A DNA stretch of 64,000 nucleotides. Source: Acidimicrobiia bacterium (GTDB taxonomy: Bacteria > Actinomycetota > Acidimicrobiia > Spongiisociales > UBA11373). The stretch covers positions 35,012 to 99,011 of the forward strand of contig JBBDMM010000006.1 of NCBI GenBank assembly GCA_040878325.1. The letters run 5' to 3'. Below are positions 8,934 to 34,648 of this stretch, one piece after another. A model generated the notes under the pieces. The model worked only from the letters and a program-made list of their open reading frames with translations, was not told the DNA's origin and did not search any database. A program made the position numbers and the translations under genes. Every line of letters begins with the position of its first letter. Position 1 is the first letter of the stretch.

Positions 8934-9019
8934 AGGCTAGGGCAGGGCAGGGGGCAGGTCGCAGGTGGCAGGTGGCAGGTGGCTCCTGATCGGCTCTTGG
9001 TTCTTGACTCTTGGCTCTC
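8934..9019. repeat. intergenic heptamer tandem repeats: G-rich (GGCAGGG)n then (GCAGGTG)x4, followed by (CTCTTGG)-like x3
   Basis: Direct reading: gggcagggcagggggcaggtcgcaggtggcaggtggcaggtgg ... ctcttggttcttgactcttggctctcc. Lies between ABC ATPase stop and NTase start. Confidence 0.8.
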
Positions 9020-9021
9020 CT

Positions 9022-9780
9022 TCAGTCGTCGTCCTCGTCGCCCCCGCCCGTCCAATCGATGTACGCCCTGACGACGTCATCGGGGGTTCCGTCCGCCATG
9101 AGCCGTCCCTCGTCGAGCCATATGGCCCGGGTGCACACCCGATCGATCTGCTTGAGGTTGTGACTCACGAGGACCACGACCTTGGCGTTCGCGCGTAGCT
9201 CTTCGATGCGCTTCAGGCTCCGCCGCCTGAAGTCGCGGTCCCCGACCGCAAGCACCTCATCGACCAGCAGGATCTCGGGTTCCATCGATGTCGCGATCGC
9301 GAAATGAAGGCGCGAACGCATGCCGGACGAATAGGTTCGGAGTGGCCGGTCGATCGCCCGACGCAACCCGGCGAAGTCGACGATGGAATCGAAGCGAGAC
9401 TCGGATTCGGCGCGGGTCATTCCCAGCGCCATGCAGCCGAGGAGGATGTTGCGCGCTCCAGACAGCTGACCATCGAGCACCGCCCCCACGCCCAATAGAG
9501 TCGGCTCACCCCGCACCCGGATCGACCCCGCCGACACGGGCTGCAGACCAGCGATGGCACTCAGCAATGAGCTCTTCCCCGACCCGTTGGCTCCGATGAG
9601 ACCCAGGATCTCACCGGTCTCGACCGTGAAGGACACGTCTTTCACGGCCTCGACCTGGGTGTGCTCACGCCGCCGACGACGCACGGTGATCTGCTCACGC
9701 AGGCTGGGGCGGCGGTCGAGGTACACCCGGTAGGTCACGCTGGCGTCCTTTACCTCGATGGCCGTCATCGGCTCATTCAC
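9022..9780 (-). CDS. ABC transporter ATP-binding protein, polysaccharide/teichoic-acid exporter type (TagH/Wzt-like)
   Basis: Walker A GANGSGKSS, signature YSSGMRSRL, Walker B ILLVDE. Pairs with ABC-2 permease. Confidence 0.85.
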   Translation of the reverse strand: MNEPMTAIEVKDASVTYRVYLDRRPSLREQITVRRRRREHTQVEAVKDVSFTVETGEILGLIGANGSGKSSLLSAIAGLQPVSAGSIRVRGEPTLLGVGAVLDGQLSGARNILLGCMALGMTRAESESRFDSIVDFAGLRRAIDRPLRTYSSGMRSRLHFAIATSMEPEILLVDEVLAVGDRDFRRRSLKRIEELRANAKVVVLVSHNLKQIDRVCTRAIWLDEGRLMADGTPDDVVRAYIDWTGGGDEDDD

Positions 9781-10645
9781 GGCCGTAGTCCCGCTCGCGT
9801 CGCTGGAACCAGACGTAGCCGACGACGGGCGTGATCAACGCCCAGGAGAAAGCGCTGATGACGAGCAGGCGGGTCACCGGCATGTCCATCACCGCCCACC
9901 GATACAGCGAGATGTAGTCGAGCAGGGGATTCAGGTTCGCCAGCGCCCGTACGGTCCCATCCTGGACGAATCGCTCGACCAGAAACAGGACTCCCGAGAA
10001 GTAGAAAGCCATCCGGAACAGGAAGTCGAGAATGTTCTCGAAGTCACGGAAGTAGAAGGTGATGCGTGCGGCGATGAAGGCGGCCCCCACCACGAACAGG
10101 GTCTGGAGCCCGAAGATCGGCAGTATCAGGAGCCATCGCAGCGACAGCGTTTCCCCGGTGAGGAGCGCTACTGCCAGCATCACGATTGCCGGGGCCAGGA
10201 ACGCCGCAGCTTCCGACGCGGTGACCGCTATGGGAAGCGTGGCCCTGGGGAAGGCGATCGACTGGATCAGTCCGCGGTTGCTGATCAGAGATCGCGCCGC
10301 ACCGACTATCGACTTGCGCATGTACTGGAAGGCGAAGATGCCGATGGCGAGGAAAGGCAGAAAGTTGCCCACCCCGCGGTCGATCTCCAGTATCAGGCCG
10401 AAGATGATGTAGTAGACGAGCACCTGCCAGGCCGGGTTGAGCAGGTGCCAGACGTTTCCGAGCACCGTGTCCATCTGCTGGCTGTGCAGATTCGACACCG
10501 CCGCAAACATCACGAAGTGGCGGCGAGACCACAGCCGAAGCAGGTCCTCCCGGATCGGTCGGCGCCGCGACGGATCTTGTAGCTCGCCGCCGAGCAACCC
10601 CCCGTCCGATGGCCCGTCCGACGACTGCCCGATCGGTTCGCTCAT
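9773..10645 (-). CDS. ABC-2 type transporter permease (TagG/Wzm-like)
   Basis: Six-helix ABC-2 permease profile. 8-nt overlap with the ATPase gene. Confidence 0.8.
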   Translation of the reverse strand: MSEPIGQSSDGPSDGGLLGGELQDPSRRRPIREDLLRLWSRRHFVMFAAVSNLHSQQMDTVLGNVWHLLNPAWQVLVYYIIFGLILEIDRGVGNFLPFLAIGIFAFQYMRKSIVGAARSLISNRGLIQSIAFPRATLPIAVTASEAAAFLAPAIVMLAVALLTGETLSLRWLLILPIFGLQTLFVVGAAFIAARITFYFRDFENILDFLFRMAFYFSGVLFLVERFVQDGTVRALANLNPLLDYISLYRWAVMDMPVTRLLVISAFSWALITPVVGYVWFQRRERDYGRE

Positions 10646-12169
10646 CTAGCCGAACTCGATGCCCTGGGCGAGCGGCAGGTCGCTGCTCCAGTTGACCGTG
10701 TTGGTCTGGCGACGCATGTACGCCTTCCAGGAGTCCGACCCCGCTTCCCGACCCCCACCGGTCTCCTTCTCACCGCCGAAGGCGCCACCGATCTCGGCGC
10801 CGGAGGTGCCGATGTTGACGTTGGCAATTCCGCAATCCGATCCCTCGGCCGAGAGGAACAACTCCGATGCCCGCAAGCTGTTGGTGAATATGGCCGAAGA
10901 CAAGCCCTGCCGAACCCCGTTGTGGACTGCAATCGCATCGTGAACGTCGGTCGCTTCGATGACGTAGAGGATGGGGGCAAAGGTCTCCTCCTGAACGATC
11001 GGCGCATCGCGGTCGATCTCGATGATGGTCGGCTCCACGAAGTGGCCGTTCAACCCAGGCACTTCGGCCCGGCCCCCACCGTGGAGGACCTTGCCGCCCT
11101 GGTCCTTGGCGATCTCGACGGCCGCCAGCATCTCGTCAACCGCGCCCTTGTTGACCAGCGGACCCATCACCGTCGAGGGGTCGAGGGGGTCGCCGATGCG
11201 CACCTGGGAGTAGGCATCGACAAGGCGTTTGATGACGTCGCCCTTGATCCCTGACTCGACGATCATCCGCCGGATCGAGGTGCACCGCTGCCCGGCGGTA
11301 CCGACTGCCCCGAACAACACCGCCCTGGTCACCAGCCCCGGGTCGGCGTCTTCGAGCACGACCACCGCATTGTTCCCCCCCAACTCGAGTAGCGACCTCC
11401 CGAGACGCTTGGCGACCGCGATTCCCACCTTCTCGCCCATGTTGCACGATCCGGTAGCCGAGATCAGCGGGATCCGTCGGTCGTTGATGAGCAAGTCGCC
11501 GACCTCGCTCCCCTTGCCGACCGCGAGGTTGAAGACGCCTTCGTAACCGGAGCCGGCCATGACCTCATCACAGATTCGGGTGACGGCGATCGCCGTCAGC
11601 GGGGTATGCGACGACGGCTTCCAGATCATCGTGTCGCCGCACACCGCAGCGACGAAGGCGTTCCACGACCACACCGCCACCGGGAAATTGAAGGCCGAGA
11701 TCACGCCGATCGGGCCGAGCGGGTGCCACTGCTCGAACATCCGATGGCGTGGCCGCTCCGACGCCATGGTCAGCCCGTAGAGCTGCCGCGAAAGGCCGAC
11801 GGCGAGGTCGGCCATGTCGATCATCTCCTGCACCTCGCCCTCACCCTCGGCGCGGATCTTCCCCATCTCCAGGGAAACCAGCGCAGCCAGGTGCTCCTTC
11901 TTGTGGCGGAGGGCGTTGCCAATCAGGCGCACGTACTCACCGCGCTTGGGAGCAGGCAGCATCCGCCAGCGCAGGAACGTCTCCTGGGCCGACGCAACGA
12001 TCTGGTCGTAGTCGGCGGCCGAGGTCTGCACGACGGTGGCGATCTCGGTGGCCGTCGTCGGGTTCTCGACCGACAGGTCGGTGCCGGACGGAGCGATCCA
12101 CCCGCCGGCGTACCCACCCGGATTGCTGTCGCCCAAACCGAGGGCGGCGAAGATCTCGTCTCTCGTCAC
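10646..12169 (-). CDS. piperideine-6-carboxylate / alpha-aminoadipic semialdehyde dehydrogenase (ALDH7 family)
   Basis: Near full-length collinearity with ALDH7/antiquitin signatures (GEYVRLIG..., [48 protein letters not shown]-like). Confidence 0.9.
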   Translation of the reverse strand: [507 protein letters not shown]

Positions 12170-12180
12170 AGGAACTCCAA

Positions 12181-12561
12181 TCAGCGTGCGGCGATTACTT
12201 CGATCTCGACCTGGAAGCCGGCAGGGAGGGCGCCCACTTGGAAAGTCGAGCGAGCAGGGGGTTCTTCGCCGATGAATCGGACATACACCTCGTTCACCGC
12301 GGCGAAGTCGGCAATGTCGGCCAGGAATATCGTCGTCTTCACGATGTCGGCGAATCCAAGCCCGACGTCACCGAGGATCGCGCCGATGTTCTGCAGTACC
12401 TGCTCGGTTTCCGCGACGACGCCACCCTCGACCCGGTCGGTCGTGCCGTGCATGAAAGCGACCTGACCCGAGACGAACACGAACCCATTCGCCTCGGTGG
12501 CGATCGAGTACGCCCCGATTGCCTTGGGACCGCTGGTGATGTCGAGGATCTTCTTGGGCAT
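12181..12561 (-). CDS. RidA/YjgF family reactive-intermediate deaminase
   Basis: 126 aa with PKAIGAYS...ANGFVFVSGQ and C-terminal TTIFL..DIADFAAVNEVY signature. Confidence 0.85.
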   Translation of the reverse strand: MPKKILDITSGPKAIGAYSIATEANGFVFVSGQVAFMHGTTDRVEGGVVAETEQVLQNIGAILGDVGLGFADIVKTTIFLADIADFAAVNEVYVRFIGEEPPARSTFQVGALPAGFQVEIEVIAAR

Positions 12562-12660
12562 GGTGGGCTCTCCGGGATCGTGTCGGGAACTGAAGCGTAG
12601 ACCGCGGCAAAATGATCGACCCCAGCGTGCGGCAAAGTCGACAGGGCCCGATCCGACGAC

Positions 12661-13053
12661 TCAGGGGCCAAGCAGATCCCAGCGGTTCCCGCAGATGTCG
12701 ACGAAGACGGCCACCCGACCGTAATCCTCAGTGCGGGGTGAGGTCACGAATTCCACCCCTTCGGCAACCATTCGATCGTACGTCGCCCCGAAGTCCTCGA
12801 CTCTGAGAAAAAAGCCAACTCGTCCGGCGACCTGCCCTCCCACCACGCGTCGTTGATGGTCACCGTCCGCACGAGCAAGCAGCAGACCTGTCTGGCCTCC
12901 GGCAGGTCGCACAACAACCCACCGTTTCGGTCGACCGTCGTTGGTAACGGAGGGCGAATCCTCCACTAGTTCGAAGTTGAGCACACTCACGAAGAACTCG
13001 ATCGCAGGGTCGTAGTCGTCAACGACGATCGTGGCGAGATCCAAGAACGACAT
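12661..13053 (-). CDS. VOC (glyoxalase/bleomycin-resistance) family protein
   Basis: 130 aa, beta-alpha-beta-beta-beta pattern with RVEDF...Y. Confidence 0.65.
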   Translation of the reverse strand: MSFLDLATIVVDDYDPAIEFFVSVLNFELVEDSPSVTNDGRPKRWVVVRPAGGQTGLLLARADGDHQRRVVGGQVAGRVGFFLRVEDFGATYDRMVAEGVEFVTSPRTEDYGRVAVFVDICGNRWDLLGP

Positions 13054-13279
13054 CGACGCAGTCTGCCACTACGCATACGAGCTCGTCGGCGTGATCACCG
13101 CCAAACCTAGGGCCGATCGTCGCACCTGGCATCAACACGGTCCCCAATCCTGAGACATTCAGACTCCCGGCGGACTTCCCGTTCGGATCTGTCTGAAACT
13201 GGGACCTCGCAGGCATTGGTGCTGTCCCTCGGCCAGCGTGGGGAAATATCATCAGTGCAGTCTGCGATAACCTCACCTC

Positions 13280-13657: not shown

Positions 13658-13754
13658 CCAAGAGACCGTCGAGGCTGGAATCTTCCCCTCGGCGGTCTTC
13701 ATCGAGTCCCGACTGCGTGCACTCGATGCGGACCCGACCTGCCACCGCGTCGGT

Positions 13755-14216: not shown

Positions 14217-14329
14217 TCTGGTTCAAATCGTCGCAGACATCGGAGCGAACTGTCGACCAGGAGACAAGGTGCTCCCTTCGGCCAGCGTCCGTAAATGTCA
14301 CCCGAGCCCCGTGTGCCCGCCGCGATTCG

Positions 14330-14877: not shown

Positions 14878-14917
14878 CTCGCTCCCACCTCCCACCTCCC
14901 GCCTCCCGCCTCCCGCG
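14878..14917. repeat. (CTCCCRC)x5 heptamer tandem repeat, intergenic
   Basis: ctcccacctcccacctcccgcctcccgcctcccgcg. Confidence 0.8.
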
Positions 14918-15034
14918 AGTGAAGACGCCAACGACGACCGGGACGCGTTCTGTCGTATTGCGAATTGCGAACCGCGGGTCGAGCGCATCGAGGACCCCGA
15001 ATTGCTGGCGACTGATTGCGGTATGGTCCCGCCC

Positions 15035-17400: not shown

Positions 17401-18522
17401 CAGCACGTTCAGGAGCCGATCGATGTCGGCCTCGTCGTTGTAGAGGTGTGGAGCCACCCGCATCGCGTTGGCCCGAAGGCTCACGAACACGCCATTCTCG
17501 GAGAGCCGCTGTCGCAGGCCCACCGGTTCTCCGGCAGGAAATCGGACACCGATGAGATGTGGAACCCGATCCGCCGCGGCGACCGGCTCGAGTCCCAGTC
17601 GGCGTGCCCCCTCCTCGACCCGAGCGGTCAATGGTGCCAACGCCGCGGACACTCGTTCGGGCCGCCACCCGGCGATCAACTCCAGAGCAGCCGACGCCAT
17701 CGGAAGCAGCACAAAGTTGCTCCATTCACCGGCGTCATACCGACGGGCACCGTCGCGCAGCTCGTCGGTGTAGTCGACGAGTCGGTTGAAGTCGTCCGAG
17801 CCCTTCCGCCCCGTCCAGGTCGACTCGATGCCGCGCCCTCCACGATGCTGCTCCGCTACCCACATGTAGCCGAAGGCGTAAGGCCCCATCTGCCACTTGT
17901 AGCCCACGGTCACCAGAAAGTCGGGCCGGATCACCGAGACGTCGATCGGTAGGGCCCCGACGGATTGGGACATATCGAGGACGAGCGCGGCCCCCACCGA
18001 ACGGGCTGCCGACCCAACGGCCTCGAGGTCGACCGCACTGCCATCGGTCCAATGGCAGGCCTGGGCGACCACCACCGCGGTGCGCTTGTCGATCGCGTCG
18101 AGAAATGCCGCTGTCCTCGAACCGCTCCGAGGAACCACGACGATCTCCCCGCCCTCGGCGGCCGTCTTCTCCCGCCACGGGTACACGTCGGAGGGGAACT
18201 CGTCCTCGACCATCACCACGGTGCGACCCGGGCCCACCGCGAGATTGCGAGCGGCGACGCCAACGCCGTACGAAGCCGACGGGACGAACGCCACCCCGTC
18301 GGCGTCGCCACCGATCAGCTCGGCGAACTGCTGCCTGAGGCGCTCACCCGGTTCAAAGAAGTCGACCGGGGTGACGTGCCAGGGGAACGCGGCCGACTCG
18401 AGGGCGCGTCGACCCGCCTCGCGCACCGGATGCGGCATCGGAGGAAAGTACGCGCAGTTGAGGTAGGTGACGTCCCCAGGGATGTCGAACAGGTGGCGTT
18501 GCGACGAGAGCGGTTCGTCCAC
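17359..18522 (-). CDS. class V aminotransferase-fold PLP-dependent enzyme
   Basis: About 387 aa with YLNCAYF...fold-type I pattern, similar to cysteine desulfurase / isopenicillin-N epimerase-like family. Confidence 0.75.
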   Translation of the reverse strand: MDEPLSSQRHLFDIPGDVTYLNCAYFPPMPHPVREAGRRALESAAFPWHVTPVDFFEPGERLRQQFAELIGGDADGVAFVPSASYGVGVAARNLAVGPGRTVVMVEDEFPSDVYPWREKTAAEGGEIVVVPRSGSRTAAFLDAIDKRTAVVVAQACHWTDGSAVDLEAVGSAARSVGAALVLDMSQSVGALPIDVSVIRPDFLVTVGYKWQMGPYAFGYMWVAEQHRGGRGIESTWTGRKGSDDFNRLVDYTDELRDGARRYDAGEWSNFVLLPMASAALELIAGWRPERVSAALAPLTARVEEGARRLGLEPVAAADRVPHLIGVRFPAGEPVGLRQRLSENGVFVSLRANAMRVAPHLYNDEADIDRLLNVLEDSSGYRPSPSKR

Positions 18523-18532
18523 CGGCCGGGAG

Positions 18533-18625
18533 CTACTTCTTACGCTTGTGACGATTGGCGCGCAAGCGCTTGCGGTACTTGTGCTTGCTCATCTTCTTGC
18601 GCCGCTTCTTGACCAGAGAACCCAT
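18533..18625 (-). CDS. ribosomal protein bS22 (actinobacterial 30-aa highly basic protein, AURKAIP1/COX24 domain family)
   Basis: Minus-strand translation MGSLVKKRRKKMSKHKYRKRLRANRHKRKK* matches the MGSVIKKRRKRM...KHRKLL signature of actinobacterial bS22. Not in the ORF track because it is under 60 aa. Confidence 0.8.
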   Translation of the reverse strand: MGSLVKKRRKKMSKHKYRKRLRANRHKRKK

Positions 18626-18670: not shown

Positions 18671-18840
18671 GCGATTCGCAATTCGGGAGGGGGCCTCGCT
18701 CCCGCTCGGCCCGCGATTGGCGATTGGCGATTGGCGATTGGCGATTAGCCAAAACGCGTGGTGGCAGGTCGCGCGCGTCTTGTCTTGCGGAAGGCGGATG
18801 GCGGACGGCGGACGGCCTTCCTGCTGGAGGCTGGAGGCGG
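18671..18840. repeat. composite intergenic repeat patch: cgcgattcgcaattcgg, (GCGATTG)x5, (GGCGGAY)x3, (GCTGGAG)x2
   Basis: cgcgattggcgattggcgattggcgattggcgattagcc ... ggcggatggcggacggcggacggcc ... ctgctggaggctggaggcgg. Confidence 0.85.
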
Positions 18841-20364: not shown

Positions 20365-20441
20365 GCGCTCCCTCGCTCGCTGCCACCCGCCTCCCGCGAG
20401 AGAGGAAGGCGGTGCACAGAAGTCAGGTTCCCCGGACTCTC

Positions 20442-22911: not shown

Positions 22912-22930
22912 GCGCCGAGATTCTAAGAGG

Positions 22931-23135
22931 CGGCTCGCTTCGCTCGCCGCCGCAATTCGCAATTCGCAATTCGCAATACGACAGAACGCGGCCCCTCGGG
23001 GCCTGCCTCTCGTCGGGGCGGGCGGGGGCTTCGCTTCGCTCGCCGTCGTCACCTGGCCCGAGGGAGCCGGGATTGCGCGCCGATCGCTTCCGAGAATTTC
23101 TGTCGTATCGCGTATCGCGTATTGCGTATCGCCCT
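22931..23135. repeat. divergent-promoter repeat patch: ggcTcgcttcgctcgccg x2, (CGCAATT)x3+, (CGTATCG)x4
   Basis: cgcaattcgcaattcgcaattcgcaatacg ... gtcgtatcgcgtatcgcgtattgcgtatcgcc. Confidence 0.85.
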
Positions 23136-24087: not shown

Positions 24088-24880
24088 GGTCTTTCGCCGG
24101 GTGGTCGTCGGGCGCCGCAAGTCCATCATCGGCTGGGCCCTCGGCTTTCTAGCGACCATGGCGTTCATCGTGCTGCTCTACCCGGCGGTCCGCGACCAAC
24201 CCAGCTTCGGCGACCTGATCGAGGACTACCCGGAGTTCGTCCAGCAGATCCTCGGTCTCGGCGGGGGCCTCGAGTTGGGTTCACCGGAGGGGTACCTGAA
24301 CAGCCAGCTGTTCGCCAACACCCTGCCCATCCTCTTCCTGATCTACCTCTTGGCCTTCGCGGTGCGCGAAACGGCAGGCGAGGAAGGTGACAAGACGATG
24401 AACCTTGCCCTCGCTCACCCAATCAAGCGCGAGCGCTTCATACTCGAGAAGTTCGCCGCGATGACGGTCACCGGGTTCGGACTCGCCATGGTGGCGGTAG
24501 CCGGACTCCTGATCACCGGGCCCCTGGTCGACATGGACCTCACCGTCGCCGGCTACTTCGGCGCCACCGTGTCCGTGTTCCTCATCGCCCTGGCATTCGC
24601 GACCCTGGCGTTGGCCGTGGGCGCCTGGACCGGGAAGAAGTCCCTGGCCTACGGGGTGACCTCCACCCTCGCCGTAGCCTTCTTCCTGTTGTGGGGACTC
24701 GCCCCGATCGTCGACGCCCTCGGATGGACCAACGCGATCAACCCCTTCTTCTGGGGCCTGGCCGGCACCCCGGTGGTCAGCGGCCTCCAGGTCGGCAACG
24801 CCCTGCTACTGGTCGGCGCCGTGGTAATGCTGGTAGCCGCGGCAATCGCCGGCTTCCGAAGGCGAGACATCGGGGTTTAG
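24077..24880 (+). CDS. ABC-2 family transporter permease
   Basis: Six predicted TM helices. Overlaps the ATPase stop by 11 nt. Confidence 0.7.
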   Translation: MRAEVFRRVVVGRRKSIIGWALGFLATMAFIVLLYPAVRDQPSFGDLIEDYPEFVQQILGLGGGLELGSPEGYLNSQLFANTLPILFLIYLLAFAVRETAGEEGDKTMNLALAHPIKRERFILEKFAAMTVTGFGLAMVAVAGLLITGPLVDMDLTVAGYFGATVSVFLIALAFATLALAVGAWTGKKSLAYGVTSTLAVAFFLLWGLAPIVDALGWTNAINPFFWGLAGTPVVSGLQVGNALLLVGAVVMLVAAAIAGFRRRDIGV

Positions 24881-24899
24881 GGCCTCGCCTCGCTCGGCC

Positions 24900-24990
24900 C
24901 GCAATTGGCAATTCGCAATTCGTAGGACGCGTGGTGGGCCGTCAGCCGCGTCTTCTCTTGCGGGAGGCGGGAAGCGGGAGGCGGGAGGCG
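24900..24990. repeat. (GCAATTS)x3 and (GGGAGGC/GGGAAGC)x4 heptamer arrays, convergent intergenic
   Basis: gcaattggcaattcgcaattcg ... cgggaggcgggaagcgggaggcgggaggcgg. Confidence 0.85.
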
Positions 24991-24999
24991 GATGGCTCC

Positions 25000-25797: not shown

Positions 25798-25820
25798 TGG
25801 CGCAACGGTAATTCAGTTGA

Positions 25821-26040
25821 CAGCCCACAGCCGACAGCCCACGGCCAGAGATCCCGCTCCGGCACCGACCAACGAGGCTTCACCTCGAGCCTGGCAGTTT
25901 GGACCTGGAGACTGGAGACTGGAGACTGGGCCGGCCAGCGGCCAGCCTAAGGCGGCCGAAGGCCGCCCGGAGACTGGAGACTCGGCCGGTCAGCGGCCGG
26001 CCTAAAGGCGGCCGAAGGCCGCCCGGAGACTGGAGCCTGA
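25821..26040. repeat. 5'-leader repeat block: (CAGCCSA)x3, (GGAGACT)x3, then two ~54-bp direct repeats each containing hairpin GGCGGCC-GAA-GGCCGCC
   Basis: Unit 1 ~25929-25980, unit 2 ~25983-26037. Both end in cccggagactggag. Unit 2 abuts the ATG at 26041. Confidence 0.8.
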
Positions 26041-26313
26041 ATGGACATCTTCGACCTCGATTCTCTGCTGGCTCAGCTGATCCTCGGGCTCGGTGCCGCC
26101 CTGGTGTTCGGGAACGGGTTTGCGCTAGTTCAGGCAAAGCGGGGCGTGAAGCCAAAGGGGGCCGAAGGGAACCTACGTCGCGGGCGGGCGTGGTTCCTGC
26201 TCGCCGTCGGCCTGGTCATCGCGGTGTGGGGGGCGACGAGCCTGATTGCGGGTGGCAGCGACCCCGAGCCCACCACCACGTCGACCACAGCCGGGGCGTC
26301 CCGGGACGCTTGA
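26041..26313 (+). CDS. small hypothetical membrane protein (2 TM)
   Basis: LILGLGAALVFGNGFALV and FLLAVGLVIAVWGATSLIAG helices. Thr-rich tail. Confidence 0.4.
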   Translation: MDIFDLDSLLAQLILGLGAALVFGNGFALVQAKRGVKPKGAEGNLRRGRAWFLLAVGLVIAVWGATSLIAGGSDPEPTTTSTTAGASRDA

Positions 26314-26369
26314 CTGCCCAGCTGGGGGCAGGAAACCGCTCCCCGCGGTGCGGTACCATCGCCAGCCTC

Positions 26370-26440
26370 GCGGGCGTAGTTCAATGGCAGAACACGAGCT
26401 TCCCAAGCTCGGAGTGAGGGTTCGATTCCCTTCGCCCGCT
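26370..26440 (+). tRNA. tRNA-Gly (anticodon CCC)
   Basis: Manual cloverleaf: acceptor GCGGGCG/CGCCCGC, D-arm GTTC...GAAC, anticodon stem CGAGC/GCTCG with loop TTCCCAA, T-arm GAGGG-TTCGATT-CCCTT, discriminator U. No encoded CCA. Confidence 0.85.
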
Positions 26441-26465
26441 CAGTCGGCTGCCCTGCGGGCGGCCT

Positions 26466-26565
26466 CCCGCGATTGGCGATTGGCAAGAGGAGCCTCGCTT
26501 TGCTCAGCCCCATCGAGATCGATCCTGACGCTTTGCGTGGTGGCCAATCGCCAATTGCCAATTGC
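26466..26565. repeat. inverted heptamer arrays flanking ~55 bp: (GCGATTG)x2 ... (CCAATYG)x3 (palindromic composite, MITE-like)
   Basis: cgcgattggcgattggcaa at 26468 and ggccaatcgccaattgccaattgcg at 26543 are reverse complements. Confidence 0.7.
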
Positions 26566-26598
26566 GAGTCCGGGGCCCTGAAGGGGCCCCGGACTCTC
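26566..26598. terminator. perfect GC-rich hairpin, likely bidirectional terminator (tRNA-Gly on + and CDS 26603-27193 on -)
   Basis: gagtccggggcccc tgaa ggggccccggactc: 14-bp perfect stem with a 4-nt loop. Confidence 0.6.
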
Positions 26599-26602
26599 TC
26601 AA

Positions 26603-27193
26603 TCAGGCTCCGGGGCCGGGGCCGAAGCGACGGCCACCGGGGCCCCGTCCGCGGAAGGGACGGCGCTCGCCGGGCTCGGGGAGCGGGCTGTTCACCGACT
26701 TGGTGATCCGTTCCTCGGCATTCTCGAGCAGCGCCGCCTTCTCGACCTCGGTGATCCGGCCGTTCTCGACCCCCAGGTCGAGGCGCTGCCCGGTCAACTC
26801 GACCAGGTGAGCGATCACTTCATCGGCAGACGATCCGTTGGCCTCGGCGATCTCGGCGATCGTGTCGTACTCACCGAGCGCCTCGCGCATCTCGGCACCG
26901 TCGAGTCCGAGGAAGTCAGCCACAGCCACCAGGCCCATGAAGGCCCGGACATGCCCCCGGCCCGGCTCCCGGAAGGAGCCGACCAAATGCTTGGCCACGG
27001 CTGCTGCCTGGGTGTCGTCAATGGTCCCGTCCTCGACGAGCGGGGCGAGTTGCTCCAGGATCCGGCTGTATGCCGGTGCGTCGGTCACGTCGGCGGTGTC
27101 GTCGTCGCTGGTCTGGGCGGCCAGGGCGATGCCTGACATCGCCAGGGCGGCGACCACCACCAGCGTGATCCCGATCTTGAGCGTGTGCTTCAC
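26603..27193 (-). CDS. hypothetical secreted protein
   Basis: N-terminal signal MKHTLKIGITLVVVAALAMSGIALAA. Acidic helical body, Gly/Arg-rich tail. Confidence 0.5.
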   Translation of the reverse strand: MKHTLKIGITLVVVAALAMSGIALAAQTSDDDTADVTDAPAYSRILEQLAPLVEDGTIDDTQAAAVAKHLVGSFREPGRGHVRAFMGLVAVADFLGLDGAEMREALGEYDTIAEIAEANGSSADEVIAHLVELTGQRLDLGVENGRITEVEKAALLENAEERITKSVNSPLPEPGERRPFRGRGPGGRRFGPGPGA

Positions 27194-27261
27194 GAGAGAA
27201 CCTCCATTCGATTACTGAGGCCACTCTCCGGGAGCCTTGTTCGGGAATTGTGAAGCGGAGG

Positions 27262-27405
27262 TAGTAATTCGCAATGCGCAATAAGCAATGCGCGGCGCGC
27301 GAGAGTTCTCCGATCAGATCACGCTCGGACCGCATTGCCGCGGCGCGAGAAGGTTCTCCGATCCGATCGGGCTCACCGCGTTGCGCATTGCTCATCGCGC
27401 ATTGC
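27262..27405. repeat. divergent-promoter composite: (GCAATRM)x3, two ~50-bp tandem units (cgcggcgcgAGArkTTCTCCGATCmGATC...gcattgc), then (GCGCATT)-type inverted array
   Basis: Unit A 27291-27338, unit B 27339-27391. Left and right flanks are reverse complements (gcaatgc / gcattgc). Confidence 0.75.
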
Positions 27406-27451
27406 GAAGCCACCGAGCGACGCCTACACGCCCTCCCTAACCTGTCGCGCA

Positions 27452-28018
27452 ATGATCCTCTCCGATGTCTCCATCCGGGCAGCGATCGAGTTGGGCCGCA
27501 TCGAGGTCGACCCCTTCGACCCGGCGATGGTGCAGCCGTCCAGCATCGATGTTCGCGTCGACCGCTACTTCCGGGTGTTCCAGAACCACCGGTACCCCTA
27601 CATCGACCCGAAGCAGTCCCAGCCCGACCTGACCAAGGAAGTGGAGACCGACATGGAGGTCCCCTTCGTGCTCCACCCTGGGGAGTTCGTGCTCGGTTCG
27701 ACGCTGGAGGTGGTCCGCCTCGACAACGACATCGTGGCCCGGCTCGAAGGGAAGTCCAGCCTCGGACGGCTCGGGCTCCTTATCCACTCCACCGCCGGGT
27801 TCGTCGACCCCGGGTTCGAGGGGCACCTAACCCTCGAGCTCTCCAATGTCGCCACTCTTCCGATCGCCATCTACCCGGCGATGCGTATCGGCCAGCTGTC
27901 GTTCTACGAGCTGACCACACCGGCGGAGAACCCCTACGGCTCCCTGCGGGCGGGCTCGAAGTACCAGGGGCAACGCGGGCCGACCGCCAGCCGGATCCAT
28001 GAGGACTTCGACACCTAG
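27452..28018 (+). CDS. dcd: dCTP deaminase
   Basis: [23 protein letters not shown] ... SSIDVRV ... [10 protein letters not shown] are canonical Dcd motifs. Confidence 0.9.
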
Positions 28019-28043
28019 TGCACCCAATGGTCGACCGGGCCTG

Positions 28044-28820
28044 ATGACGACGCCAGGTTCCGGAGCCACCGCCGATTCGTCCCGCCATCCCCTGCTCTTT
28101 GTGCACGGTGCCTGGCATGGGGAGTGGTGCTGGAAGCGACATTTCGTACCCTGGTTCGCCGAGCGCGGGTGGGCCTGCCACTCGCTCGACTTCCGCCACC
28201 ATGGGGCAGCCGGGGGTCCCGGCAGTCTCCGGCGCAGCCGGATCAAGCACTATGTCGACGATCTCGCTTCCGCCGTCGACGGCTTCGACCGCTCACCGAT
28301 ACTCGTCGCCCACTCGATGGGAGGCCTGGTGGCGCAGCGACTGCTCGAGAGTCGACTGCTGCCCGGAGCGGTGCTGCTCGCCACCGTTCCGGTCGGCGGC
28401 GTGTGGCGGGCGACGGGCCGGACGATCCGGCGACACCCGCTCAAATTCCTCGAGGCAAACCTTCGGCTCGACCTCGGTCCGCTGGTCGACTCGACCCGCA
28501 TGGCCCGATCGATGCTTTATGACCCCGACATCGCGCTCGCCGAGGTGGAACGACTTCAGCCGATGCTCCAGAGCGAGTCATATCTCGCCTACCTCGACAT
28601 GCTGTTAGTCACCCGGCCCCGGCCGCCGCTGGTGCACACGCCCGTCGCCCTGATCGTCGGCGACCAGGATCGCCTCTTCTCCGTGCGCGCCACCGAGCGA
28701 ACGGCGAGGGCGTACGGCACCGAGGCGACCGTGATACCCGGTGCGGGCCACGATCTGATGCTCGGCCCGAGGTGGGAGCAGGCGGCAGCCGCGGTGCTGT
28801 TCGCAGCCGAGGACTTCTGA
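28044..28820 (+). CDS. alpha/beta hydrolase
   Basis: LLFVHGAWHG, nucleophile elbow AHSMGG, C-terminal GAGHDLML. Confidence 0.75.
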   Translation: MTTPGSGATADSSRHPLLFVHGAWHGEWCWKRHFVPWFAERGWACHSLDFRHHGAAGGPGSLRRSRIKHYVDDLASAVDGFDRSPILVAHSMGGLVAQRLLESRLLPGAVLLATVPVGGVWRATGRTIRRHPLKFLEANLRLDLGPLVDSTRMARSMLYDPDIALAEVERLQPMLQSESYLAYLDMLLVTRPRPPLVHTPVALIVGDQDRLFSVRATERTARAYGTEATVIPGAGHDLMLGPRWEQAAAAVLFAAEDF

Positions 28821-28824
28821 CGGC

Positions 28825-29985
28825 CTAACGGTTCGCCCGGGCGCGCTCCCAGATCCGCTCGAGTGCTTCGGCCGAGGCATCCCACCCGAAGTGCTCCTCG
28901 ACGAACAGCCGCGCCCGCTCGGCCATCAGCCGCGCCTCGGCGGGATCATCGATGAGGGCAAGGGCCGCCGCAGCGATCGCCGTTGCGTCCTCGCCCACGA
29001 GCAGGTGGGTGCCGGGGACCGCCCCCACCGCCTCCGCCGCTCGCGGGGTGGTCACCACGGGGGTTCCGACCGCCATCGCCTCGAGCACCTTGTTCTGCAT
29101 CCCGGTGCCGGCGCGCATCGGGACGATCGCCACCCCCGCCCGGGCGACGATCGCTCCGAGGTCTTCAGGGCCTGGAATCAGGGCCACCCCTGGAGCCTGA
29201 GCCAGCCGCTTGATCGCATTCGAGGGACGGGCGCCGGCGAGGACGAGACTGGCGGTGGGGATGGTGCGGCGGAGGACGGGCAGCACCTCGGTGGCGGCGA
29301 TTCGGGCGGCGTCCACATTGGGGAAGTACCCGAGGTTCCCCGCAAACACCAGGGTGTACGGGTCGCGACCTTCAGCCCGGAACGAAAAGTGTTCTAGATC
29401 GACGCCGTTGGGGATGACCTCCACCCGGTCCCCCAGGGCGGTGGCGTCGGCTGCAGTGGCGGCGACCACCGACACCCCCCGGCGCATCAAGCCGCTCTCG
29501 TATAGGAAGACGCGCCGCGCCTCCCACCGGGCCGCCAGACCGCGGACGCCACGATCATGATCGGCACGGCGGTGGAGATTCACCGACATTGCATCGATCA
29601 GATCGACCACCACCGGGGGCCCTGCTTCCGGGAGCAGCGGAGCCGTCCTGATCAGCTGAGTATGGATGAGGTCGACTGAGCCGCCCAGCTGCTCGATCCG
29701 CCGCCGCGCTGCCCTCCCGGTGTACGGAAGCGACTGTGCGGGACGTCGGTCCAGCGGCGCCCGGCCCATCCGGGCGACGGCTCCCGAAGACGACATCGGC
29801 ACCACCTCGAGCCTCACCCCCAGGCCTTCCACCTTCGCTCGATCGGCAGGCGACGGCACCCGGCCGACAAGGCAAACGGTTATGTCGTGGCGGGGTGCCA
29901 GCTGGCGCAATTGGTGATAGGCCCGCACCTGATCGCCCCGCCACGGCGGGTAGGGGAGCCGGCTGACCACGAAGAGAACACGCAC
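28825..29985 (-). CDS. family 4 glycosyltransferase (GT-B)
   Basis: MRVLFVVSRLPYPPWRGDQVR N-terminus. C-terminal EX7E-like region. About 386 aa. Confidence 0.8.
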   Translation of the reverse strand: MRVLFVVSRLPYPPWRGDQVRAYHQLRQLAPRHDITVCLVGRVPSPADRAKVEGLGVRLEVVPMSSSGAVARMGRAPLDRRPAQSLPYTGRAARRRIEQLGGSVDLIHTQLIRTAPLLPEAGPPVVVDLIDAMSVNLHRRADHDRGVRGLAARWEARRVFLYESGLMRRGVSVVAATAADATALGDRVEVIPNGVDLEHFSFRAEGRDPYTLVFAGNLGYFPNVDAARIAATEVLPVLRRTIPTASLVLAGARPSNAIKRLAQAPGVALIPGPEDLGAIVARAGVAIVPMRAGTGMQNKVLEAMAVGTPVVTTPRAAEAVGAVPGTHLLVGEDATAIAAAALALIDDPAEARLMAERARLFVEEHFGWDASAEALERIWERARANR

Positions 29986-30006
29986 ATCCAGAGGTTACGG
30001 TCGGCG

Positions 30007-31011
30007 TCAGGCCAAACCGAGGGCGGGGATGACCTCGCGGCCGTAGGCATCGAGGGTGGCTTCCTTGGCGTCGTGCATCAGGTAGATGGCGAACTGGTCG
30101 ACGCCTAGGTCGCGCAGCTCCTCCATCCGGGCGATGTGATGTTCGACCGGTCCGAGGATGCAGAAGCGGTCGACCACCTCGTCGGGGACGAAGTCGGTGT
30201 AGGGATTGCCCGCCTTGCCGTGGTGGTCGTAGTCGTACCCCTGACGCGCGGCGATGTAGTCGGACAGTGCCGCCGGGACCATCGTCGAATCGGACCCGTA
30301 GCGAGAGACCAGGTCGGCAACATGGTTCCCGACCATCCCCCCGAACCATCTGACTTGATCGCGCTGGTGGGCGATGTCGTCGCCGACATACGCCGGGGCG
30401 GCCACGCAGATCTTGACGGCCTCGGGATCGCGGCCGGCCTTCCGGGCGGCATCCTTGACGAACTTGGTCGTCCACTCCACCAGATAGGGATCGGCCAGCT
30501 GGAGGATGAATCCATCGCACTCCTCCCCGATCAGGGTGAGCGCCTTGGGCCCATAGCCGGCGCCCCACATGGGGAGGTGCCACCCCTCAGCCCACGGGAT
30601 TCGCAGCGTCTTGTCGTTGTATTCGACCTCGCCACCGGCGACCAGCTCCTTGATCACCCGCATCGACTCCGACATCGTCTGCAGGGTGGTTGGCTTTTGG
30701 TTGATGTAGCGGAGGGCCGAGTCGCCCCGCCCCATCCCGCAGATCGTGCGCGGTCCGTACATCTCGTCGAGGGTGGCGAACAGCGAGGCGATCACCGTCC
30801 AATCGCGGGTACCCGGATTGGTCACCATCGGGCCGACGACGATTTCGGGGTTCTCGGCCAGCATCCGGCTGAAGATGACGAAGGGCTCCTGCCATAGGAC
30901 ATGGGAGTCGAACGCCCAGGCGTGGGTGAACCCACGATCGGCGGCGTACCTCGTCAGTTCGAGGACGCGGGAAGCCGGCGGATTGGTCTGCAGGACGACT
31001 CCGAAGTCCAT
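30007..31011 (-). CDS. LLM-class F420-dependent oxidoreductase (luciferase-like monooxygenase family)
   Basis: 334 aa. TIM-barrel LLM pattern collinear with F420-dependent G6PDH-family enzymes. Consistent with an actinobacterial host. Confidence 0.8.
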   Translation of the reverse strand: MDFGVVLQTNPPASRVLELTRYAADRGFTHAWAFDSHVLWQEPFVIFSRMLAENPEIVVGPMVTNPGTRDWTVIASLFATLDEMYGPRTICGMGRGDSALRYINQKPTTLQTMSESMRVIKELVAGGEVEYNDKTLRIPWAEGWHLPMWGAGYGPKALTLIGEECDGFILQLADPYLVEWTTKFVKDAARKAGRDPEAVKICVAAPAYVGDDIAHQRDQVRWFGGMVGNHVADLVSRYGSDSTMVPAALSDYIAARQGYDYDHHGKAGNPYTDFVPDEVVDRFCILGPVEHHIARMEELRDLGVDQFAIYLMHDAKEATLDAYGREVIPALGLA

Positions 31012-31118
31012 GGGTCAACCACTCCTAGGTGGAGAACGAACCTATAGGTCTAGCAAAGAACAGAAGAGCGAAGGGCGAAAGGCGAAACCCGGTCAGAGCC
31101 TTGTAGCGGGCAGCGGGC

Positions 31119-31409
31119 CTAAGTCGCTGCCTCGCGCGCCCTTACCGTTTCGCCTAGATCGGTGATGGGGCGGGTGGTGGCGTGGCCCCGGTCGACGATC
31201 GGGTCGAGGCCGGCGTTCACCTGTTCGGCCCGTTCTGCCTCGACCACCCAGAAAAACGTGTGCGAAGCGGCGTCGACCCATGATCCGACCACTCGGGCCC
31301 CGGCGGACTCCATGGCGGCGTCGACGCTCCCGAATGTGGCCGCAAGCGTGGCCGGGTCGCGGTACAGGCACCGCTCCGGAGCGTGGGTGTGGGTGATGTG
31401 AAACAGCAC
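31119..31409 (-). CDS. small hypothetical protein (start tentative, GTG)
   Basis: ORF with VLFHITHTHAPERC N-terminus. No recognised domain. Confidence 0.3.
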   Translation of the reverse strand: MLFHITHTHAPERCLYRDPATLAATFGSVDAAMESAGARVVGSWVDAASHTFFWVVEAERAEQVNAGLDPIVDRGHATTRPITDLGETVRAREAAT

Positions 31410-31419
31410 AGAAAGGAGG

Positions 31420-31445
31420 CTACCCGCTACCCGCCACCCGCTTCC
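31420..31445. repeat. (CTACCCG)x3 heptamer repeat, intergenic
   Basis: ctacccgctacccgccacccg. Confidence 0.75.
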
Positions 31446-31592
31446 GGCATGAGGCGCGGTCGCTACCGGCAAGCGATCGGGTGACTAGTCCCTCTGTGCA
31501 TCACTAGATGACCCCTCCCTGGAAGATCCTCCGCCTCGAGGCGCCGGTGGCTCGGTCGATCAATCGGGACACGAATCAAAGGGGACAACACG

Positions 31593-32159
31593 ATGAACAG
31601 CAACGGAATCAAGATCCTCGCTGCCGTGCTGGCCGTCGCCGGTGCCTCGTTCGTGACCGTACGGGCGACGGCCGCGGCGTTCTCGGACCAGACCGACAGC
31701 GCAGCCAACCAATTCGCCGCAGGCACCGTCCAGCTCAGCGACAACGATGCCGGGTCCGCCCTCTTCGACGGATCCTCTCTCTTCGTCCCCGGGGACTCAG
31801 TGGTGGGATGCATCGAGGTGACCTACTCGGGCTCGGTGGATGCCGGGGTCCGACTCTTCGGAGCCACCACCGGCGGCGACGGCCTCGAGGCCTATCTCGA
31901 TGTGACGATTGAGCGAGGCACCGGTGACTGCACCACCTTCGGCACAGCGACCGAGGTCTGGGGCGCGACGGATGGCGATCTCGCCGAATTCCTCGCCGCA
32001 GCCTTCTCATACGCATCCGGCGTCGACAGCTGGGCACCGGTCGGCGGGGGAGCCGACGACACGGTCCCCTACCGGATCACGGTTACCCAGCAAGACGACA
32101 ATGCCGCTCAGGGTCTGTCGTCCATGGTCAGCTTCACCTGGGAAGCCCAGAGCAGCTGA
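31593..32159 (+). CDS. secreted protein with SipW-cognate class signal peptide (TasA/camelysin-like small type)
   Basis: N-terminus KILAAVLAVAGASFVTVRATAAAFSDQTDSAANQFAAGTVQL matches the SipW-cognate signal consensus (...AyFsD...N.FaAGt). Mature part about 150 aa, beta-rich. Confidence 0.7.
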   Translation: MNSNGIKILAAVLAVAGASFVTVRATAAAFSDQTDSAANQFAAGTVQLSDNDAGSALFDGSSLFVPGDSVVGCIEVTYSGSVDAGVRLFGATTGGDGLEAYLDVTIERGTGDCTTFGTATEVWGATDGDLAEFLAAAFSYASGVDSWAPVGGGADDTVPYRITVTQQDDNAAQGLSSMVSFTWEAQSS

Positions 32160-32403
32160 TAAGCATCGGGAGGGGACCCGGCCCCCCCCGGGGCCCCGGG
32201 TCTCTCACCTCGGTCCGACCATGAGCAACCCGTCGATCGCGACACCGCGCCTCGATGCGACCGCCGGGCCGCTCGACCATCTGGCGTACGCCCGCAGCAC
32301 ACCGAGCTCCGCCGATCCGTTCGCCCGTGACGGAGTTCGGGTCGTTGCTGTGGGCAGGAGAGACTCCACCGCCAAACCACCCGACGACGGTCAGACCCTC
32401 GCG

Positions 32404-33990: not shown

Positions 33991-33994
33991 CCGC

Positions 33995-34582
33995 CTACTT
34001 GTCGCTTGCCGCAAGCACCCCGGTGAGGGCGTCCCACAGGGCAACGCTCATCTCGGCGCATGCCGCCACCGCGGCGTCGGCGGATGTTCCGTCGAGCGTA
34101 TCGACGATCTCGTCGGCCTCGTGGTAGTCGGCGGCGTGGACCCGGAAGTACTCGGCCGCGTCCTCTGCTTCAACGAAGCCGTAGTGCTCGACGAGACCCT
34201 TTAGCTTCTCCTCCGAGGTGCTCGGCTGCTGCGCCTCGAATGCGTAAAGGGCGCCCCAGGCGTTGGCTGGATCGGCGAACAAGCGGCGGGCCGTGTCGAG
34301 CAGGGCCGCCACCTCCGGAAGCCGGGGCTCGCCGATCTCGGTTCCGAGCCGGCCGGCGAACACTCCCCACATCCCGGCGTGGGTGACTTCCTCGGCGGCG
34401 TGTTCGTGGTTACCCACGGTCGACCACCCCTGCGGCACCGCGGCGATGAACGCGCCGTACTCGGCCGCATAGGTCGCCAGCGCCGTGACCGGAAGCGTCC
34501 CCTCGCGCCAAGCCACATAGAACGGATGCTCGAGCAACCGATGCTCCCCGATCGCCTCTTCCAGTCGTCCCCTGATCTCCAT
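33995..34582 (-). CDS. TenA/PQQC/heme-oxygenase-like fold iron-containing redox enzyme family protein
   Basis: HPFYVAWREGTL ... AVPQGW ... is a PqqC/TenA-like helical pattern. Confidence 0.55.
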   Translation of the reverse strand: MEIRGRLEEAIGEHRLLEHPFYVAWREGTLPVTALATYAAEYGAFIAAVPQGWSTVGNHEHAAEEVTHAGMWGVFAGRLGTEIGEPRLPEVAALLDTARRLFADPANAWGALYAFEAQQPSTSEEKLKGLVEHYGFVEAEDAAEYFRVHAADYHEADEIVDTLDGTSADAAVAACAEMSVALWDALTGVLAASDK

Positions 34583-34599
34583 GCCCCCTCCTCTTCCTC

Positions 34600-34630
34600 C
34601 GTATTGCGTATCGCGCATCGCGCATCGCGG
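34600..34630. repeat. (CGTATYG)x2(CGCATCG)x2 heptamer array
   Basis: cgtattgcgtatcgcgcatcgcgcatcgcgg. Confidence 0.8.
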
Positions 34631-34648
34631 GCCGCCGCAGGCGGCCCC
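34628..34648 (-). terminator. hairpin terminator downstream of mmsA
   Basis: gggccgcc gca ggcggccc: 8-bp perfect stem. mmsA stop lies 1 nt away. Confidence 0.5.

Follow-up and report, generated by a model that had tools for sequence, protein, structure and literature searches.

We describe tandem arrays of 7-nucleotide (nt) units (heptamers) in a 64,000-nt stretch of DNA (the window) from an uncultured Acidimicrobiia bacterium, where they lie between genes in a part of about 26 kb and some of them recur together with a small hairpin and linkers. The genes flanking the arrays encode a PAC2 protein, a class-V aminotransferase, a peptidase C26, a short-chain dehydrogenase (SDR), a GHMP kinase and an ABC transporter pair, with a PhzF-like protein, tRNA-Gly, dCTP deaminase, a hydrolase and a luciferase-like oxidoreductase as further neighbors. 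Among them is the actinobacterial ribosomal protein bS22 (30 amino acids [aa], MGSLVKKRRKKMSKHKYRKRLRANRHKRKK; gene 18533-18625, minus strand; Pfam call COX24_C). The nearest public loci were contigs of metagenome-assembled genomes (MAGs) labelled Acidimicrobiia and Actinomycetota. For comparison, two relatives (L002 and L003) were taken from a contig scan, and further syntenic loci were obtained through an exact-protein look-up with bS22, an effective probe for syntenic relatives since the identical protein occurs in 277 blocks of a public collection.

Period-7 arrays and the repeat mosaic

Tandem Repeats Finder (TRF) returned 20 period-7 arrays in the window, all within 8946-34629 (Table 1). 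Exact arrays of three or more copies numbered five at period 7 and none at periods 5, 6 and 8-15; a strict scored scan gave nine arrays at period 7 and none at any other period from 4 to 14, and a looser scan gave 18 at period 7 and one each at periods 8 and 9. In second-order Markov simulations (n = 200), the loose threshold yielded a mean of 2.0 arrays and a maximum of 7, against the 18 observed, and a stricter score threshold of 12 yielded a mean of 0.04, against 11 observed. Every one of the 18 loose-scan arrays was non-coding, although the gene model leaves only 18% of the window non-coding (P ~5e-14). A Logan contig from SRR27977662, independently assembled, was 100% identical to the window over 26376-32179, arrays included. 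The period-7 arrays are a real feature, far above chance. The alternative that they stem from chance, base composition or faulty assembly is vanishingly improbable: it is refuted by the simulations, the controls at other periods, the identical independent contig and the presence of arrays at orthologous sites (see below), and nothing was found in its support, the sole artefacts met being poly-G/poly-C runs beside N gaps in the L002 scaffold. These runs (L002 1100-1141, 4163-4177 and nearby) are C/G homopolymers abutting ten-N blocks in JBBEAX010000005; they are scaffolding artefacts, several of them beside arrays, which suggests that arrays break short-read assemblies.

A preliminary description, made from the letters of the window, had listed array intervals, placed none of them in a confident coding sequence (CDS), paired some as inverted repeats and located them in both divergent and convergent intergenic regions. 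All of its intervals were recovered to within a few bases, with TRF or, for 27376-27405, as an arm of an inverted repeat; that segment is too imperfect for TRF and forms the right arm of inverted repeat I15 (27268-27299/27377-27408, 88% complementary). The placement outside CDS held for 18 of 18 arrays, the inverted pairs were found again (I11, I15 and 26466-26565), and both kinds of intergenic region proved to contain arrays. The alternatives that it had named, namely a frequency expected from G+C content, equal presence in coding DNA and artefact, did not survive the simulations, the exclusion from coding DNA and the independent contig. Six arrays were absent from that description (14957-14971, 18823-18838, 25820-25846, 25932-25946, 31063-31087 and 31105-31118), as were two longer array-based tandem duplications (25914-26039 and 27291-27384).

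In canonical form, the units of the window fall into at least 13 families, the commonest being CGCAATT/GCGATTG with its variants, followed by GCGGGAG/GCGGAAG. Copy number was low: across 82 arrays of the sub-clade, the median was 3.6 and 76 had fewer than five copies (23 arrays with 2-3 copies, 27 with 3-4, 26 with 4-5, 3 with 5-6, 2 with 6-7 and 1 with more than 8). Density ranged from 2.8 to 10.4 arrays per 10 kb across the window, L002, L003, L129 and the Ga0214471 contigs. The longest array met was a perfect (CCCGTCG)11.7 at L045 9478-9559, on a Ga0214471 metagenome contig of the same repeat-rich lineage; arrays can thus pass the usual limit of 2-5 copies. In the (GCGGGAG)n arrays at 14882-14916 and 24960-24991, GGG tracts stand 4 nt apart and fit the usual G-quadruplex sequence pattern; G-quadruplex formation was rejected as an explanation, as it covers these two arrays only. 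A strand bias was rejected likewise: CGCAATT-family arrays are divided between five on the plus and five on the minus strand, and the G-rich strands follow no pattern.

Several arrays recur in a mosaic with the order GGGGCC-TCGCTYCGCTC-GGCCC, then (GCAATTS)n, then a linker ACAGAACGCGTG…CTCTT, then (GCGGRAG)n and sometimes (CTGGAGA)n, with copies in the window at 18686-18838 (+), 24874-24991 (+) and 14882-14997 (-). The strict pattern occurs twice in the window and also on the unrelated metagenome contigs L010, L030 and L045 (alignments A1 and A2). Unique flanks are common to several arrays (repeats D9, D10, I1, I4 and I5; alignments A1 and A2), and the junction TTCTGTCGT-(ATTGCGW)n stands at 14948, 23098 and 34594 and, reversed, at 22986 (D9, I4). 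Because such flanks are shared, the comparison shows that the arrays are not independent, and that they are, to judge from sequence, modules of a mosaic copied between intergenic regions.

The hairpin of the mosaic has an invariant 11-nt loop (TCGCTYCGCTC) and a stem of 4-8 bp with compensatory substitutions (GGCGGC/GCCGCC, GGGCC/GGCCC, AGGCCC/GGGCCT and GGGTC/GACCC). Over 14 copies, 77% of stem cells were paired, against 59% after shuffling, and none of 500 shuffles reached the observed pairing or covariation score; each of the six pairs has substitutions in both of its strands, and controls with a slid register scored lower. The window holds five clear copies of the hairpin, every one on the plus strand. 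Three inverted array pairs were found (22951/23104 [I11], 26469/26543 and 27266/27377 [I15]), two of which are predicted to fold as long hairpins, 26466-26565 with z of -6.4 and -4.8 on the two strands and the I15 element with z of -7.2 and -9.0. Most arrays stand singly or in mosaics of one orientation, and the latter showed no excess folding (z -2.0 to +1.75). Rfam searches of 8.9-34.7 kb, at the gathering threshold and at E values up to 1, returned tRNA-Gly only.

Table 1. Coordinates of array, mosaic and hexamer features in the window
Position	Strand	Feature	Context	Basis
5467-5506		Degenerate relic resembling (CTCCCGC)n		I6, D5
8946-8983		(GCAGGTG)n, ~5 copies	Abuts TAGCCT -10-like hexamer of gene 8169-8927 on minus strand	TRF, scans
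8992-9018		(CTCTTGG)n, ~3.9 imperfect copies	Just past stop of gene 9022-9780 (minus strand)	TRF
14882-14916		(CTCCCRC)5, module B of minus-orientation mosaic	G-rich strand with five GGG tracts	TRF, I1, I10
14917-14956	-	Mosaic linker …GAAGACGCC…ACGCGTTCTGTCGT		Alignments A1, A2
14957-14971		(ATTGCGA)2.1, CGCAATT family, minus orientation		TRF, D9, I4
14975-14997	-	Hairpin with variant loop, GGGTC-CTCGATGCGCTC-GACCC	Beside array	
18691-18712	+	Hairpin GGGCC-TCGCTCCCGCTC-GGCCC	Directly 5' of array	
18713-18746		(GCGATTG)4.9, perfect	Between bS22 and peptidase C26 genes	TRF, scans
18754-18786	+	Mosaic linker ACGCGTGGTGG…GCGTCTTGTCTT	Terminator-like stem and T-rich tail	D10
18787-18816		(GCGGAWG/GCGGACG)4.3		TRF, strict scan
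18823-18838		(GCTGGAG)2.3	13 nt upstream of TAGCCT hexamer of C26 gene	TRF, looser scan
20370-20400		Relic CCACCCG CCTCCCG	3' end of SDR gene	D5
22920-22925	-	TAGAAT hexamer		
22929-22951	+	Hairpin GGCGGC-TCGCTTCGCTC-GCCGCC	6-bp stem	
22951-22977		(CGCAATT)3.9, perfect	Left arm of I11	TRF, scans
23104-23132		(CGTATCG), ~3.7-4.1 copies	Right arm of I11	TRF, I11
24880-24900	+	Hairpin GGGCC-TCGCCTCGCTC-GGCCC	From stop codon of ABC-2 permease gene	
24900-24922		(GCAATTS)3.3		TRF, looser scan
24927-24959	+	Mosaic linker ACGCGTGGTGGG…GCGTCTTCTCTT		D10
24960-24991		(GCGGGAG)4.6	Four GGG tracts	TRF, strict scan, I1
25805-25810	-	TACCGT hexamer		
25820-25846		(ACAGCCC)n	9 nt upstream of TACCGT hexamer of PhzF-like gene (minus strand)	TRF
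25905-25946		(CTGGAGA)3.6, then (CGGCCAG)2.1	TRF intervals 25905-25929 and 25932-25946	TRF, scans
25914-26039		55-56-nt tandem duplication, 2.3 copies	Re-copies array end; absent from L002	TRF
26469-26484		(GCGATTG)2.3	Left arm of pair after tRNA-Gly	TRF
26543-26565		(GCCAATY)3.3	Right arm of pair after tRNA-Gly; absent from L002	TRF
27266-27293		(CGCAATG)4, imperfect	Left arm of I15	TRF
27291-27384		48-nt tandem duplication	Core between I15 arms	TRF
27377-27408		Right arm of I15		Inverted-repeat search
27438-27443		TAACCT hexamer		
31063-31087		(GAAGGGC)3.4, imperfect	TRF interval 31063-31086	TRF, looser scan
31105-31118		(AGCGGGC)2		
31419-31442		(GCTACCC)3.4	Minus strand: overlaps TAGCCT hexamer of gene 31119-31409	TRF, looser scan
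34600-34629		(CGTATYG/CGCATCG)4.3	Between two minus-strand genes, beside GC hairpin; TRF interval 34606-34629	TRF, looser scan, D9

Placement relative to genes and turnover in relatives

In seven genes, a TANNNT hexamer (TAGCCT four times, TAGAAT, TAACCT and TACCGT once each) has its first T 12-15 nt before the start codon, and all five intergenic TAGCCT in the window (8939, 18852, 23170, 31422 and 39122) end 6-9 nt before a start codon. A hexamer at this distance is a signature of leaderless transcription in actinobacterial promoters. The pattern suggests that TAGCCT is the preferred -10 element and that leaderless transcription is widespread in this organism; a scan for canonical promoters returned none. 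Arrays lie 0-13 nt from the hexamer at genes 8169-8927 and 31119-31409 and at the PhzF and C26 genes, and 24-42 nt from it at the GHMP, dcd and ABC genes. Because they stand upstream of the -10-like hexamers of apparently leaderless genes, these arrays would be promoter-upstream DNA outside the mRNAs. Other arrays are found 4-9 nt past a stop codon behind the hairpin, or between convergent genes; the former arrangement, in sense orientation, accounts for 5 of ~10 cases. Short spacers within operons are mostly without arrays, and the orientation of units relative to flanking genes is mixed.

Two roles tied to gene starts were tried and rejected. TTGCGA resembles the actinobacterial -35 element, and tandem -35 hexamers were considered; the distance from the last unit to TANNNT is variable (24-42 nt) and beyond -35 spacing (~17 nt). 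A Shine-Dalgarno or anti-Shine-Dalgarno role for GGAG-containing or CCTCC-like units failed on their inconsistent orientation relative to downstream genes. A terminator scan found 3 terminator-like sites, against 7.3 expected from shuffles, one of them in a linker (18755-18775).

The two closest relatives (nucleotide identity to the window ~90% for L002 and ~75-80% for L003) share the intergenic positions of the arrays with the window but differ from it in what these hold. Between the window and L002, the array at 22951 has 3.9 and 4.3 copies, respectively, and that at 26469 has 2.3 and 4.3; the array at 25820 (2.9 copies) corresponds to two L002 arrays of ~2 and 2.7 units (ACAGCCG and AGCCAAC); and at 23104, CGTATCG in the window faces CGAATTG/CGATTTG (4.9 copies) in L002, all units having changed together. 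At the positions of the ACAGCCC and CTGGAGA arrays, L003 (~77% identity) has the unrelated GCCATCG and CGGTYGC. Past the SDR stop codon, three genomes have three different arrays, namely the hairpin with (CGCAATT)4.4 in L013, (CCCGCCA)3.6 in L129 and the relic in the window. Each genome has its own set of dominant units. At the tRNA-Gly locus, L002 is without the right arm only. The alignments show that each array gains and loses whole 7-nt units and that the copies within one array change together.

Several genes of the relatives (a GNAT acetyltransferase, a cytochrome c and an open reading frame of ~300 aa) are missing from the window exactly between arrays (24881-24999 and 26298-26369), and in L003 a pair of inverted arrays, (CCCGCTK)n and (GCGGGYA)n, encloses the cytochrome c gene. 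The suggestion of the preliminary description that the arrays are hotspots of variation was borne out to this extent: copy number and unit sequence differ between genomes ~90% identical, and whole genes come and go between arrays.

Further out, five arrays were counted in 6 kb of L129 (77-81% identity); those of L138 (75%) are few and consist of GCCCGTY units throughout. Of the other syntenic loci (65-72% identity), 11 of 16 were without an array in 6-20 kb and 5 of 16 had one or two weak ones; by length, no array was found in seven of nine 6-kb and four of nine 20-kb syntenic loci. The spacer between the bS22 and C26 genes is only 44 nt long in L126; in the window it reaches 241 nt, and the extra DNA consists of arrays between conserved promoter-proximal segments; the bS22-proximal segment is kept in L126. 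Because these 65-72% relatives are nearly array-free and the L126 spacer shrinks in this way, the comparison shows the arrays to be additions specific to one clade and, as far as the neighboring genes can be judged from synteny, dispensable for them. An unusual density for a bacterial genome, as claimed in the preliminary description, is upheld against most relatives (0-2 arrays per 20 kb in syntenic Acidimicrobiia) and is not unprecedented among bacteria (PMC4692102, PMC4679880, PMC2700814).

A metagenome scan for three GCRATTS units matched at least 120 contigs (G+C content, 30-76%), which held 231 period-7 arrays and at most 12 of any other period. The preference for seven is general among lineages with such arrays. 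Within 120 of these contigs, there were no regions orthologous to genes of the window, only two short matches to the repeat element and one 126-nt match to a gene end (L013), so that they count as independent samples and not as orthologous loci. In the literature collection that was searched, no paper names heptanucleotide repeats together with Acidimicrobiia.

Known heptamer families and competing readings

An excess of intergenic heptamers has been reported since 1990, and we know of no function found for such repeats, nor of a reason for seven. In cyanobacteria, the short tandemly repeated repetitive (STRR) sequences are 7-nt tandem units with a strong intergenic bias; they occupy many loci of a genome and are restricted to particular clades. 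They resemble the present arrays in all of these respects, whereas here the host belongs to the Actinomycetota, the units are other and far more diverse, and arrays are joined with a hairpin and linkers. Enterobacterial repetitive extragenic palindromes (REPs) and the bacterial interspersed mosaic elements (BIMEs) built from them are extragenic mosaics of a small hairpin and conserved linkers, reshuffled between loci. The conserved extragenic hairpin and the recurrence of unit-linker combinations at unrelated loci are alike here, but BIMEs have no heptamer arrays. Heptad arrays also serve as operators of the omega ribbon-helix-helix repressor on pSM19035; the contiguous 7-bp geometry of these operators is similar, and their one conserved heptad is not matched by the at least 13 unit families here.

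Among repeats described elsewhere, intergenic heptamers are over-represented in cyanobacteria, an example being Nostoc with its GGGGA(C/T)T arrays (PMC4692102 and its reference 39). PMC4692102 also relays the polymerase-slippage idea of Mrazek et al. 2007, the primary source on heptamer over-representation. The GGGAATC repeats of Xanthomonas prefer about four units, form inverted pairs, are G-rich and quadruplex-forming, and were given no regulatory role (Rehm et al. 2015, PMC4692102). Like the arrays of the window they are non-coding, short (four copies there, a median of 3.6 here), variable in length and sequence, found at the same intergenic positions and in part paired as inverted repeats; unlike them, they consist of one unit and are depleted between divergent genes, where here many units occur, just two arrays have four or more GGG tracts, and all six divergent regions bear arrays. 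In Geobacter metallireducens, four or five tandem heptanucleotides form the core of multicopy elements (PMC2700814), which are likewise dispersed and keep conserved flanks around that core, but are of consensus GGACCGG or MTYCTGA, with some copies intragenic and no hairpin-plus-array mosaic described there. The TAACTGA repeats of Beggiatoaceae, cyanobacteria and Bacteroidetes (2-6 tandem heptamers, patchy phylogeny; PMC4679880) share the tandem sets, the intergenic position and the patchy distribution; theirs is a single unit a few nt upstream of start codons, which suggests translational control, whereas the arrays here lie upstream of the -10 element or past the stop codon, in mixed orientation. 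In Haemophilus influenzae, the ATCTTTC repeat of hmw acts through a long 5' untranslated region hairpin cut by RNase III (PMC12721329) and is a single hypermutable, phase-variable locus of at least 11 copies that controls an adhesin (PMC12721329, PMC2651432). It shares with the present arrays a 7-nt unit upstream of a gene and the possibility of a long hairpin with a complementary arm; here, by contrast, there are many loci with 2-5 copies and housekeeping neighbors (bS22, dCTP deaminase, PAC2, ABC transporter and GHMP kinase). None of the published units (STRR1-3, GGGAATC, TAACTGA and GGACCGG) is among the units of the window. Judged by sequence, the arrays are of the same kind as the known intergenic heptamer families, in a different sequence family and a new phylum. 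Distinctive here are the many unit families side by side, the covarying hairpin with its linkers and the enrichment between divergent genes.

We think it on balance probable that the arrays form a clade-specific, non-coding mosaic repeat family that is mostly selfish or neutral, and that they are not required regulatory sites; the best reading of the analysis would be an STRR-like repeat family assembled as BIME-like mosaics. Units would be gained and lost in 7-nt steps through slipped-strand mispairing or unequal exchange. Selection would remove arrays from reading frames, since seven is not a multiple of three and each 7-nt step would shift the frame, and arrays would therefore collect in the unconstrained DNA between divergent -10 elements and past stop codons. 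Modules would spread between loci by recombination, gene conversion or some trans-acting enzyme. Several observations weigh against this reading. Within 8.9-34.7 kb, arrays occupy 9 of 19 intergenic regions, against 0 of 16 outside (Fisher P = 0.0015); the latter are the intergenic regions of 40-600 nt in 1-8900 and 34700-64000, in which no heptamer array was found. Divergent intergenic regions of the same 8.9-34.7 kb bear arrays in six of six cases. Even two-copy duplications are specific to period 7 in the looser scan, and slippage alone gives no reason for seven. The copy-number distribution is a plateau at 2-5 with a sharp cut-off and is not geometric, which hints at a constraint of ~21-35 bp. 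CGCAATT is kept after the ABC-2 gene in three of three genomes, where the surrounding intergenic DNA is unalignable, and identity to L002 reaches 98.4% across the intergenic stretch 27194-27451, inverted arrays included, against 88-94% for coding DNA. These observations would be more in keeping with selection or a dedicated mechanism than with neutral drift. The region at 27194-27451 is itself the divergent region upstream of the dCTP deaminase gene and holds a ~140-nt perfect-stem hairpin (z -7 to -9), for which Rfam gave no hit. Conservation as a regulatory element and recent exchange may each account for it.

The preliminary description had also raised protein-binding arrays. Cooperative binding of one or a few proteins specific to the clade, with one subunit or dimer per 7-bp unit and perhaps organising or regulating promoter-upstream DNA, seems to us fairly unlikely. 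Such proteins would suit the strict period in direct and inverted arrangements, the narrow 2-5 copies (~21-35 bp, the size of a protein footprint), the location directly upstream of -10-like hexamers in six of six divergent regions, the trait that is on or off between clades, the genome-specific dominant units expected if protein and site co-evolve, and the CGCAATT conserved at one orthologous site in three genomes. No single sequence-specific protein, however, could read all of the at least 13 unrelated unit families in 26 kb; orthologous sites have exchanged their units altogether, the gap between array and -10 element varies from 0 to ~40 nt, arrays also sit between convergent genes and past stop codons, and no candidate protein was identified. 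A role in RNA, whether as unstructured 5' or 3' segments, in Rho loading, as hairpin substrates of RNase III or as non-canonical terminators at the stop codon, we hold to be decidedly unlikely, although the hmw repeat of H. influenzae is a precedent for it. The sense hairpin-plus-array past stop codons, the predicted long hairpins of the inverted pairs (z -4.8 to -9.0), the linker at 18755-18775 that fits a terminator-like pattern and an L013 array that stands 18 nt ahead of a start codon in a spacer of co-directional genes argue for it; yet many arrays would lie outside the mRNAs, orientation relative to genes is mixed, one-orientation mosaics lack excess folding, Rfam gave no match even at E = 1, terminator-like sites are rarer than in shuffles, and the same genes in syntenic relatives manage without arrays.

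Movement as a transposable element would make the arrays true ends of miniature inverted-repeat transposable elements (MITEs), or REP-type hairpins spreading as inverted pairs (REPINs), mobilised by a transposase, perhaps a REP-associated tyrosine transposase, whose gene would lie in another part of the genome. Three inverted array pairs, a REP-like hairpin with covarying stem and invariant loop, the same mosaic at non-orthologous sites and on unrelated contigs, and the shared plus strand of the five clear hairpins are consistent with this, but no target-site duplications flank the inverted pairs, the tRNA-Gly locus of L002 lacks one arm only and so offers no clean presence/absence, most copies are without terminal inverted repeats, and the ACAGCCC, GCAGGTG, CTCTTGG and GCTACCC arrays have flanks in common with no other. 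We rate such movement as very unlikely; among the window proteins searched against Pfam (29 of ~60 predicted genes), there was no transposase. The MITE family proposed in the preliminary description stands in so far as this is a dispersed repeat element whose arrays were copied with unique flanks, and is otherwise not supported, in view of the absent target-site duplications, the lack of one arm in L002 and the mostly direct copies without terminal inverted repeats. Unlikely, too, though of wider consequence, is a trans-acting factor, specific to the clade, by which 7-nt arrays beside the REP-like hairpin would be written, copied or used. Such a factor might be a nuclease or transposase recognising the TCGCTYCGCTC hairpin, a polymerase that realigns in steps of 7 nt or a binder with one unit per subunit. 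The mosaics would then represent self-propagating or functional elements of a new class, the on/off distribution among syntenic Acidimicrobiia would let phylogenetic profiling find the factor, and its existence could explain why bacterial long repeats favor period 7.

Since the period is constant and the unit sequence free, what is conserved points to a mechanism or a geometry and not to a sequence motif. One sub-clade has the trait and its syntenic sister genomes almost lack it, which offers a clean comparative search for the responsible gene, and the travel of arrays with the hairpin and linkers provides a handle on the mode of spread. Annotators and assemblers of MAGs should expect contigs to break at such arrays and should expect the arrays to mark clades, in the manner of STRR fingerprinting.

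Other features of the window

An island at ~50.7-58 kb has a G+C content of 0.60-0.62 (against ~0.67), fits the codon model poorly and is without heptamer arrays; its genes encode a HATPase_c_3 protein (MORC-like), an N6/N4 DNA methylase and an APH-family kinase, and it is probably acquired DNA tied to defence or restriction-modification. ARAGORN called a tRNA-Glu of 103 nt at 17560-17662 (minus strand), inside the aminotransferase CDS; Rfam does not confirm this call, which is probably spurious. A 24-nt (8-codon) tandem repeat at 49525-49619 (~3.9 copies, CAC/GAC-rich), near the 5' end of a peptidoglycan-binding-domain gene, is coding and unrelated to the heptamers. A 120-nt direct repeat (D1; 44276-44395 and 47494-47613, 3.2 kb apart) is 75% identical between its copies and contains an internal palindrome, TCGCCGCCGATGG…CCATCGGCGGCGA (I24).

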